Source: Felis catus
Lineage: Eukaryota
Length of the DNA: 64,000 nt
Reading direction: 5' to 3'
Assembly (NCBI RefSeq): GCF_018350175.1
Contig: NC_058368.1
Location: forward strand, 103,170,001-103,234,000
Numbering within the stretch: the first letter of the stretch is position 1; the number at the start of each line of letters is the position of its first letter. This document shows, piece by piece, positions 16,333-47,219 of the stretch. The position numbers were made by a program, and so were the translations under genes. The notes beneath the pieces were generated by a model that saw only the letters and a program-made list of their open reading frames with translations, did not search any database and was not told where the DNA came from.

Positions 16333-16535
16333 CATTGTCCCAGAGAATTTTCTGTGAGGAAGAAAATGCTCTACTTGCACTGCCTAATGAGATAGACACT
16401 AGGAACATGCAGCTGTTGGGCAAATGAAATGTGCATCGTCTATGTGAGGATCTGAAGTTTTTATTTTACTTTATTACAATTAATTTAAAATTTTAATGAC
16501 CACATGTGCCTAGTGGTTATCCTACTGGGCAACCA
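16333..16535 (+). mobile_element. MER3 (hAT-Charlie)
   Basis: Colinear with MER3: tgtcc..agaattttctgtga..gaaaatgctcta...taatttaaa...cacatgtgcctagtggtta. Confidence 0.8.
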
Positions 16536-16591
16536 AATAGATGCAAAGTCTCCTAAGCCTCTGTCCTGAGTCTGAAAAGTTGATTTCAATT

Positions 16592-16795
16592 TTCTTAAAA
16601 TTGTTTTAATGTTTATTTTTGAGAGAGAGAGAGCAAGCAGGGGAAGGCAGACAGAGAGGGAGATACAGAATACAAAGCAGGCTCCAGGCTCTGAGCTGTC
16701 AGCACAGAGCCCGACGCGGGGCTCAAACCCACGAACCGCGAGATCATGACCCGAGCTGAAGTCAGACGCTAACCGACTGAGCCACCTGGGCACCC
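16592..16795 (-). mobile_element. Can-SINE (cluster element A)
   Basis: Complete reverse Can-SINE flanked by tgatttca. Confidence 0.95.
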
Positions 16796-16803
16796 TGATT
16801 TCA

Positions 16804-17025
16804 TTTTTTAAAAAAAATTTTTAATGTTTATTTATTTTTGACACAGAGAGAGATAGAGCATGAGAGGGGGAGGGGCCGAGAGAGAGGGAGACACAGAATC
16901 CGAAGCAGGCTCCAGGATCTGAGCTGTCAGCACAGAGCCCGATACGGGGCTCGAACTCACAGATCGTGAAATCATGACCTGAGCCGAAGTCAGACACTCA
17001 ACTGACTGAGCCACCCAGGCACCCC
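16804..17025 (-). mobile_element. Can-SINE (cluster element B)
   Basis: Complete reverse Can-SINE. Confidence 0.96.
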
Positions 17026-17029
17026 TCAA

Positions 17030-17126
17030 TTTTTTTAAAAAATATATAACTTATTGTCAAATTGACTTATATACAACGCCCAGTGCTCATCCCAACAAGT
17101 GACCTCCTCCTCAATGCCCATCACCC
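17030..17126 (-). mobile_element. Felid/carnivore L1 3' end, heavily 5'-truncated
   Basis: ttattgtcaaattg...atacaacgcccagtgctcatcccaacaagtg..ctcctcaatgcccatcaccc matches the reverse cat L1 3' UTR. Confidence 0.85.
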
Positions 17127-17140
17127 TGACTTCAATTCTT

Positions 17141-17373
17141 TTTTTTTTAAAAAAAAATTTTAATGTTTATTTACTTTTGAGAGAGAGAGAGAGAGAGAGA
17201 GACAGAGCATGAGTGGGAGAGGGCAGAGAGAAAAGGAGACACAGAATCTGAAGCAGGCTCCAGGCTCTGAGCTGTCAGCACAGAGCCCGATGCAGGGCTC
17301 AAACCCATGGACTGCGAGATCATGACCTGAGCTGAAGTCAGACACTTAACCAACTGAGTCACCCAGGCGCCCC
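17141..17373 (-). mobile_element. Can-SINE (cluster element C)
   Basis: Complete; TSD accctga(c/t)ttcaattctt (17123-17140 and 17375-17392). Confidence 0.96.
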
Positions 17374-18247
17374 TACCCTGATTTCAATTCTTAATGGAAG
17401 ATCTCAGGATTGAGGTGTCCCCTAAAAATCTCCTTGGACAAGGCCAGGTTTGAAAGAGAAATCTGGGTCCCATCAGCTGGGCTCTAGGGATTTGGTGTCC
17501 ACTCCATCTCCAAGCTGCCACACCATTTACACATCATAGTTGTCTTAATATTAGGGGTTTAGGACTTGAGGTTACATGACTGCAGGAATCCTCATTCTTA
17601 CCTTATTTTGGGTCAGTTTACCTCTTGGGGCATAATTCTATAAAATGACGCCCTCTGGAATCACGCAACTTTGGTGTTACACAAAACATTTGGCAAAACT
17701 TTCCTGACTCAAGAGAAAGAACTCTCCCGCTTTTGGGGATTCTTCTGTTGTCTCATGTGGACATCAGTCAGGGAAGGGGAAATGGTGCTAGAGGCAGAGT
17801 GAGGGTGTGGGATCCAACCTAGACTAGGTCCCCACTTCATTGGGGATGTCACTTTCTAGCCACCTTCTATGTGCACATCCTGTCTCCCAAGAGAAGACCT
17901 ACAAGCCAGGTGGATCCTACTGTGTGACTCAGAGATAGCCTTGGCCCATGAGCTCCCAGAAAAGTATATCCCTTGTTCTCTAGTTCAGTCTTTTCCATGT
18001 ATGACCTAGCTAAGCTTCTCTGGACTTCAAGTGGAGAGAACTAAATAAAATGATGAAGTGTAATCATTAAGTACATTATTAGGAGCAGAAAAAATATCTT
18101 CTGGGGTCATAGACTGTCCTATTCTGTTGAGGAGCTGCAGTTGGCTTCACTAGGTCCATGACAGGAGAAGGATGCAGAGGGCAGGATGAAAAAACTGGAA
18201 GGGAGCCAGGGTGAACTACACAGCCCCTACTCTCTTCACCTGTTTTG

Positions 18248-18819
18248 GCCTAGAGACCGGCACTGGTTGATCAAGGGGCTTTTGTGTCTCGTTTTCCCTA
18301 CAGCTTTCATGGGAACCTTTACACCCTTTCACCTCCTTTGCCTCCCTCTGTAAAACTCTTTAAAATCTTTCTCTGCAGTTGTTCTACTTGGTCCTTCAAC
18401 TGTTTCAACGCTTTGACCAGATGACATAAAAATGTTCAGGATGAGGACTCGGTTGCTGACGTTGAATACTTAGGCTTCACTGGGCTGAGTAGAAGCTGAA
18501 TCATTGGTACAAGGTACAGGATTCATCTGTGGAGCATGAGTTGTAGGTGTCCCTGAAAGAGACGTGCTGCCCAGTCAATGAGATCGCAAAATCGTACCCC
18601 ACTCCGATGGCTAAGCTATTTGTATTAAGGATAACATCTACACATTATTATCAAGCATGGCTGAATAGAAGTCACAAAAGTATTCTTCTCCAGGAAGGGC
18701 AATGCCATGCCTGAGGACATCCATGCAGATATTTTCTTTGTGCTCGAGGAAAAGTCCATGAACACTTTTGCCAAGATTGCATCACGATGCTCTACAGTGC
18801 CCTGATCACACACAAGGAG
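18248..18819 (+). pseudogene. DNAJB5: DNAJB5 pseudo-exon covering the G/F-rich linker and CTD-I (penultimate coding exon)
   Basis: Homology starts at G|GC CTA GAG ACC GGC after a pyrimidine tract, with the acceptor AG decayed to TG at 18246-47. It ends at ...LYSALITHKE (18819). Stops include TAG 18544, TAA 18612 and TGA 18662, plus frameshifts. Confidence 0.88.
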
Positions 18820-19002
18820 ATAGGGTTTGCGTCAGGGTTTGTGTATGTCTACAGAGAAAAGAGGGATGATAATGGATGATGGGGCCATTTCTATTCCTTC
18901 CGACAACCCGGTCCATTCTTTTCTCTTCTCATTCTTTTGCTTCCTTTCCCACTTCCTCTACACCTAGCCTCTTCATTATTGTTTGCCCTATTTTTCCCCC
19001 AG
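18820..19002 (+). other. Retained 183-bp intron of the DNAJB5 pseudogene
   Basis: Non-coding interruption exactly between KE and (A)LC. The donor reads ATAGGG (GT>AT). There is a long pyrimidine tract and an intact acceptor tttttcccccAG at 19001-02. Confidence 0.87.
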
Positions 19003-19221
19003 GAACTGTGCATCTTCACCATAAACATGTCCACTTCTGATGGCTGACAGAATCTTGTGCTCTGTAATGATGTCATCGATGCAGGCCTAATGAAAAGACT
19101 CTGTGGAGAGGCTTCCCACTTCAAGGTACCCACCCAGTGGGAAGATATCATTGTCTCATTTAGCTATTTCCCAGAAAGATTGATATAAGGCATTTCTAAG
19201 CAGCACCTACCTTGTTCTTAG
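19003..19221 (+). pseudogene. DNAJB5: DNAJB5 last coding pseudo-exon (CTD-II to stop)
   Basis: ELCIFTINMSTSDG*QNLVLCNDVIDAGLMKRLCGEASHFKVPTQWEDIIVSFSYFPERLI*GISKQHLPCS* versus recalled DNAJB5 [62 protein letters not shown]...KQHLPCS*. Confidence 0.92.
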
Positions 19222-19800
19222 TCTCTGCCCTGGCTGGTTCAGTGTCCATCAAAGCAATGTGTTACTGCCTCTACCTCCAACATATATATACCCCAACCAA
19301 TGTCTACCCTATTCTATGGACTCTAGCCACTTACACTACTATAAGTATATAAAAAAAAAATACTGTTTTTAGGAGAATATATCTGTCCGTGATCCCCTTT
19401 AGAGCCGCGATGTCATGGGATGAGAACTGGCCTTGGCCAAGGATGAATTATCATGGCCCTGGCTTTCAATCTAGTTGACGTCCAGTAGTCAGAGAATAAC
19501 CTGCATACTGCTGGAAGAGGTGGTAAGCCAGTAAATAGCTTGTTCTCCTTCCCCTTCTATCATTGCTAAAACCTTTTTTCTTCGCCTTTTTTCTCTTAGA
19601 TTCTCCCCATGTGGAAAAGGAAAAGCAGAGAAGGCCTTCTTTTACCACCACCACCCTGGGTCCATAGTGTCCAACAGTCAGCCAAGGTACCGCATACATA
19701 ATCGCACACAGGTACCACTCACAGAGCTGTCTGTATCTTTTCTGGGGGTGAGATAGAAGGGGAAAGATAATCTGTGATGAGGGCCATTGAGCATGAGTCA

Positions 19801-46942: not shown

Positions 46943-47219
46943 TCTAATTGTCTAAGGATCTACCTAATACTTTCCCTGCCTCATCTTATCTACCTCTCTC
47001 CCCAGCTTTGTCACCAGGTCTGTGGTTATTGTCTATTAGCAAAGAACTGATAGGTCTAAAGCCATGTACTCTGCTGTGACTTCTTTAAATGATATGCAGT
47101 GAGTTCTATGTTTTCAGGGTTATCCCACACGGTACCTGTCTAAATAGGACACCACAAAGCCAGTCTTTGTATATCATTTAATTGGTTGTGTGTGTGTACA
47201 TGTAGGGTTGACTGAGGAG

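Follow-up and report, generated by a model that had tools for sequence, protein, structure and literature searches.

Background

Unprocessed (duplicated) pseudogenes usually lie near their parent gene, and semi-processed pseudogenes are described as a class in the same source (PMC4151081). Templated insertions are divided into two classes, class 1 being made by L1 ORF2 and showing a duplication of the target site (TSD) along with poly(A) and an endonuclease site, and class 2 representing a patch left by break repair; intronic sequence is named among the donors (PMC5110952). A report on intron gain in retrogenes (PMC3002245) is not applicable here. DNAJB5, a class B Hsp40, is encoded at 9p13.1 in humans (PMC8004706).

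The window, that is the whole stretch of 64,000 nt of cat DNA analysed here, contains at 18247-19218 a region homologous to residues 71-348 of DNAJB5, or 80% of the protein, interrupted by stops and frameshifts. It is almost certainly a pseudogene that derives from the 3′ half of DNAJB5, lacks the J domain and has kept intron sequence at both splice junctions.

Identity of the DNAJB5 copy

The initial annotation had described a colinear, stop-riddled match to about 80% of a class B Hsp40. Frameshift-aware alignment to a DNAJB5 protein of 348 aa (P0012) confirmed this match over residues 71-348, with six stops and seven frameshifts. Residues 71-271 align at 18247-18819, where 82 of 186 are identical and four of the stops and all seven frameshifts occur; residues 273-348 align at 19006-19218 (40/71 identical, 2 stops), and a terminal TAG follows at 19219-19221. 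The first block is a decayed middle coding exon on the plus strand (18248-18819, residues 71-271), which encodes the G/F-rich region and the first part of the C-terminal domain and matches DNAJB5 at 233 of its 322 codon-fixed bases. The second is the decayed last coding exon, also on the plus strand (19003-19221, residues 272-348 and the stop codon), with two internal stops and 102 matches among 128 codon-fixed bases. A tblastn search of the 64-kb window, the check proposed at the outset, recovered the last exon with an E value of 1.8e-12, which excludes chance. Four read-through pieces of the pseudogene gave no match in Pfam.

DNAJB5 had been named as the parent in the initial annotation, with a better hit to another DNAJB paralogue as the result that would speak against it; DNAJB5 stayed the best match. 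In a large protein collection, the last exon found 10 proteins among 11 candidates. All five of these that bear a gene name are DNAJB5 (53% identity), and one further match, a 'hypothetical protein', is identical in sequence to the named ones. At the 23 last-exon positions at which DNAJB1 and DNAJB5 differ, compared by eye, the window agrees with DNAJB5 at 11, with DNAJB1 at 2 and with neither at 10; this comparison covered DNAJB1 and DNAJB5, with mammalian DNAJB4 outside it.

Intron sequence at the two junctions

Between KE and (A)LC the copy is split by an insert of 183 bp (18820-19002, plus strand) that ends in a pyrimidine tract and CAG; its acceptor CAG is intact, and the donor GT has decayed to AT. 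The comparators for introns and UTR were products of gene callers that had read through DNAJB5 introns, back-translated into base-level score matrices, rather than DNAJB5 DNA. These read-through products locate the real last intron of DNAJB5 at KE/ALC. When the insert was aligned globally to the 11 of the 19 local-test comparators that hold a complete intron, all 11 alignments, panda included, scored above the best of 60 block shuffles. The local test was more divided: for eight of the 19 comparators, no more than 1 of 300 block shuffles scored as high; four were marginal (6-15/300) and seven, the panda intron and a bird-like control among them, were not significant (>10% of shuffles); the comparators are mutually related and do not represent independent trials. 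The insert had been predicted to be the last DNAJB5 intron, and a failure to align with that intron had been set as the finding against it; the 11 end-to-end alignments identify 18820-19002 as this intron.

A middle segment of the insert is present in primate-like introns (159-160 nt) and missing in the named introns of bat and panda (129 nt). Its score was reached by 6, 33 and 24 of 1000 shuffles with three long introns and by 2 with P0125, as against 64, 649, 74 and 107 of 1000 with four short ones. This pattern gives moderate support to an origin of the pseudogene that would predate the deletion of the middle segment from the DNAJB5 last intron. The fossil keeps a longer, and probably more ancestral, last intron than the living bat and panda genes. 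Two UniRef models of DNAJB5, P0006 (bat) and P0027 (giant panda), read in frame through the 129-nt last intron and possibly represent real intron-retention isoforms.

On the 5′ side, homology at the protein level does begin abruptly at GLxTG, as had been noticed; at the DNA level it continues into the preceding intron. The intron downstream of the J-domain exon was recognised by its 3′ end at 18111-18247 (plus strand), with its acceptor decayed to TG, so that intron homology extends at least 136 nt upstream of the middle exon. Alignments anchored at the junction reach 18179 (P0115) and 18111 (P0081, P0114 and P0118); the latter position is where the comparators start, and the length of the upstream homology is therefore a lower bound. 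For all eight mammal-like read-throughs, the alignment score was reached by none of 142-147 random window stretches, and for four non-mammal-like controls by 127/145, 3/147, 10/142 and 120/138, the taxon labels of unnamed comparator proteins having been assigned from their exon residues. DNAJB1 has the same junction, as seen from the DNAJB1-PRKACA fusion chain, which matches DNAJB5 until the residue before the middle-exon junction. Two of the three splice sites of the copy are hence broken (acceptor TG, donor AT).

A search for the J-domain exon on both strands of the window gave at best 26 bits, compared with 64-79 bits for three control segments of 70 codons, and no trace of the upstream N-terminal exon of DNAJB5 was detected in the window. 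Slightly further upstream, a stretch of 50 nt (18033-18082) matches 46952-47001 at 72% and overlaps with its end the upstream candidate TSD described below; this match looks like an old repeat of the MIR type.

The 3′ end and the flanks

Downstream of the stop codon, the first ~110 nt of the DNAJB5 3′ UTR were recognised at 19222-19331 (plus strand). The anchored alignment to the UTR read-through of P0125, a decayed intron-keeping copy, peaks at 19331, and the read-through of P0033, which was given little weight because its tail is error-rich or chimeric, agrees with an end of UTR homology at about 19335. Both comparators continue for at least 20 codons past the peak, and with both the similarity beyond the A run is weak, being reached by 9 of 100 null draws in each case.

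The position at which UTR homology ends is followed by an A-rich tract (19332-19360, plus strand) that closes with A10 (19351-19360) and is a candidate for a decayed poly(A) tail; its first part is shared with a distant related copy, P0122. In the ~55.7 kb of non-SINE sequence of the window there are 27 clusters in which 19 or more of 30 nt are A, about one per 2 kb, and seven runs of A10 or more. At this frequency of A-rich tracts, coincidence with the end of UTR homology has a chance of a few percent, and it was noticed after the fact. An exact AATAAA is absent from the 10-30 nt before the tract, where an intact hexamer is not expected at 26% decay.

A possible target-site duplication is formed by a candidate upstream copy of a decayed direct repeat at 18069-18099 and its candidate downstream copy at 19358-19384 (both plus strand), for which 18069-18099 is the best partner. 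The pair scores 11 over 31 nt with one gap of 5 nt and one of 1 nt. This score is reached by 12% of 1886 random stretches of 711 nt and by 0.4-1% of random 60-nt stretches, and the other 60-nt bins over 16521-18560 score at most 9.5. In repeat finding with exact seeds, the candidate was not among the 20 largest families. The match is not significant unless a 5′ boundary is given, and at 27-31 nt the repeat exceeds the usual TSD length of 5-20 nt (PMC4151081).

Decay, age and related copies

At codon-fixed sites, 115 of 450 positions differ from the parent (25.6%, Jukes-Cantor 0.31), with an excess of G>A (30/142) and C>T (19/81). Since the DNAJB5 protein is almost invariant across mammals, these differences belong to the copy. 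Allowing for CpG decay, a distance of 0.31 would fit an origin near the placental radiation.

Related copies were found at fixed-site distances of 2.8% (P0001) and 18.1% (P0122), and probably lie at the same genomic site, as judged by shared derived sequence, not by their flanks. By neutral distances, these values would fit another felid and a non-felid laurasiatherian, respectively. P0122 likewise has an AT donor. A relative 18% away with the same broken donor argues that the copy is old, and the sharing of both this donor and the start of the AT-rich tract indicates that it was already dead in the common ancestor. The copy is thus likely older than the cat family. P0001, P0025, P0026 and P0122 were also considered as open orthologues and are best read as the pseudogene translated with TGA as W, P0001 having W at all three window TGA codons; as such translations, they provide no evidence of an intact gene.

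The stretch was found in full in 14 runs of one organism. Contigs of other individuals, some of low depth, show single-base differences at 18287, 18379, 18824, 18998, 19189 and 19211, and the contig with the P0026 allele differs from the window by one base over 18674-18904. The locus is polymorphic in the manner expected of neutral DNA.

Two further mammalian sequences deserve mention. P0125 is another decayed DNAJB5-like copy (50/77 identical in the last exon) that keeps a long last intron and 3′ UTR. It is not supported as an orthologue, the window being nearer to DNAJB5 at 15 of 23 sites and P0125 at 4, with 4 tied, and it probably represents an independent event in another mammal. P0080 (XP_062937764.1), from the colugo Cynocephalus volans, is a 'DNAJB5-like' model of 480 aa in which a coiled-coil N-terminus, presumably resembling that of golgins, is joined to DNAJB5 from the same exon onwards, without a J domain. 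Either this is another, far younger copy lacking the J domain, or the gene model is chimeric.

Expression and coding signs

Reads were compared from 4 of 24 listed runs. In a bulk oligo-dT run, none of 12.9 million reads matched, and in a single-cell run 2 partial reads, under 90%, were found among 12.9 million; both runs are of unspecified tissue, each sample represents 1-2% of its run and no positive control accompanied it, so that this is a weak test of transcription. Two metatranscriptome runs yielded unspliced contigs that span the intron as well as its flanks; we attribute them to DNA carry-over and not to expression, and they carry the alleles that account for P0025 and P0026.

The window shows no further sign of coding: of the 144 stop-free frames outside SINEs, 10 had weak Pfam matches, none at the curated cut-off, and Rfam gave no match. 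Features of a functional gene for a class B J-domain protein are lacking throughout the copy: it has no J domain, no open frame and no full set of intact splice sites.

Surroundings of the copy

About 6.4 kb of the window consists of SINE-like repeats. A cluster of three SINE copies of carnivore type, two of them head to tail, lies at 16580-17394, ~0.7 kb upstream of the pseudogene. At 330-800, repeat-free non-coding sequence reads, as an impression only, like a conserved developmental enhancer. A nearly pure run of C of ~55 nt at 1250-1310 may stem from an error of sequencing or assembly, or may represent a G-quadruplex tract on the minus strand.

Route of origin

Introns are lost wholly or mostly in processed pseudogenes. 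Here both visible junctions are unspliced, and no spliced junction occurs in 18111-19331, as the removal of at least one intron in a semi-processed pseudogene would produce. In structure the copy agrees with an unprocessed pseudogene, keeping the exon-intron arrangement of its parent and carrying disabling mutations. The view taken in the initial annotation that this is no ordinary processed retrocopy is thereby supported, and the two routes that it named, a DNA-level duplication and the retroposition of an unspliced pre-mRNA, are the right pair, which the present data separate incompletely.

We tentatively place L1 retroposition of an unspliced DNAJB5 pre-mRNA first, only just ahead of a copy at the DNA level. 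An A tail located ~110-130 nt beyond the stop codon would have served as the priming site of L1 ORF2p; reverse transcription would then have crossed the last intron, still unspliced, and the middle exon before ending within the preceding intron (5′ truncation). The resulting insert, ~1.25 kb long, bounded by a target duplication that has since decayed and likely placed far from the parent DNAJB5, would have been subject to neutral decay from roughly the placental radiation onwards. As it had no promoter, start codon or J domain, it would have lacked function from the start.

A sense fragment with an intronic start, an end in an A-rich tract shortly after the stop codon and a repeat-like flank resembles in shape a 5′-truncated L1 product. 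The peak of UTR homology at 19331 coincides with the start of the sense-strand A-rich tract, though the comparators run on, and the imperfect direct repeat that follows the tract is best matched by sequence that lies just upstream of where homology is first detected. The bat and panda models that read through the last intron are compatible with its retention in a transcript. Against retroposition stand the length of the candidate repeat and its 5-nt gap, together with the share of random 711-nt stretches that do as well, and the missing AATAAA. The weak similarity beyond the A run, if real, would make this run internal to the copied sequence, and after 26% decay A10 would probably not have survived as an unaltered tail. 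Since no junction is spliced, there is no positive mark of an RNA intermediate; with neither a hexamer nor a clean TSD, a DNA-level copy is almost as likely. In such a dispersed duplication, a piece of genomic DNAJB5 would have been copied into a double-strand break, or replication template switching would have moved it, and the A-rich tract would be host sequence or a later expansion by slippage. Unspliced junctions are the default for a DNA copy, the 5′ boundary lies beyond the comparators, and weak similarity may continue past the A run. Other mammals also have DNAJB5-like copies without the J exon or with an intron (P0125 and the colugo P0080), and insertions without TSD or poly(A) form a described class (PMC5110952). 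Under a duplication of DNA, an A-rich tract just where UTR homology ends is a chance event of a few percent, and with no J exon or N-terminal exon in the window the copied block must have been short or partly deleted. A more specific reading, which we regard as improbable, holds that L1 retroposed a wholly unspliced nuclear pre-mRNA, or a transcript starting in the intron after the J exon, close to the base of placental mammals, that its tail and target duplication can still be read, and that P0125 and P0080 are independent products of the same germline transcript. If true, some dispersed 'unprocessed' pseudogenes would be RNA-derived.

The copy might instead descend from a once-functional J-less paralogue of DNAJB5, for example one fused to other exons as in P0080 and lost early. 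The annotated colugo model, which joins an N-terminus that recalls golgins to the same DNAJB5 exon, gives this idea some colour, and we consider it very unlikely, because the donor was already broken in the distant copy P0122 and none of the 144 stop-free frames outside SINEs reaches the Pfam cut-off. Moreover, the amino-acid-changing sites are 26% diverged, close to the ~30% in the intron, which gives no sign of long purifying selection. Least probable is that the parent was another class B paralogue or that the insert is an unrelated later insertion in a processed copy. DNAJB1 does match the last exon in PDB, with stops written as X (E 2.6e-4), and the seven local-test comparators matched by more than 10% of shuffles include the panda intron. 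Both ideas run against the diagnostic residues (11 versus 2), all 11 full-length alignments of the insert to DNAJB5 introns and the homology to the upstream intron. Between paralogues whose split dates to early vertebrates, introns would no longer align.

The locus was further considered as a counterpart of human DNAJB5P1 carried along with SPATA31 duplications, an idea that was rejected, as no SPATA31-type Pfam family was found in the 144 frames. No literature on DNAJB5P1 was found, the supplements of two papers were also without a match, and a search for SPATA31 together with DNAJB5 returned unrelated papers only, among the matches listed. Among the matches listed for DNAJB5 and pseudogene, none concerned such a locus by its title or the start of its abstract; annotation tracks may already mark it. 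Mammalian DNAJB5 DNA was also sought in metagenomes, in which 80 loci were kept at 34-58% identity, none at the level of DNAJB5, and by a pattern scan of viral and prokaryote collections, which gave 0 matches.

Meaning of the copy

A function of the copy is not likely, and its value is that of a molecular fossil, curious but ordinary. It may serve as a presence/absence marker for early mammal phylogeny. Were its junctions confirmed, the copy would show cleanly how L1 copies a pre-mRNA that has not been spliced, a route which annotation would class under DNA duplication.

Comparison with known systems

Compared with the DNAJB5 gene itself, the copy agrees in residues 71-348, in the positions of both junctions and in intron and UTR sequence, and differs in lacking the J domain and an open frame and in its broken splice sites. 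It shares with unprocessed pseudogenes the exon-intron structure of the parent and the disabling mutations. These are often part of a larger duplicated block, whereas here a fragment of at least 1.2 kb stands apparently on another chromosome. Semi-processed pseudogenes are alike in being dispersed partial gene copies that keep intron sequence; however, at least one intron has been removed in them, and no junction is spliced in our case. The TMF1 copy shows that L1 can copy incompletely spliced RNA and has a clear poly(A) tail, whereas the tail and TSD described here are candidates. The templated insertions are similar in that a short piece of a distant locus, introns included, is inserted elsewhere, and their two classes correspond to the two routes weighed above (PMC5110952). 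Those insertions, as described there, are young human polymorphisms with readable junctions; in contrast, the DNAJB5 copy is shared across species, has decayed by ~26% and fits neither class firmly.
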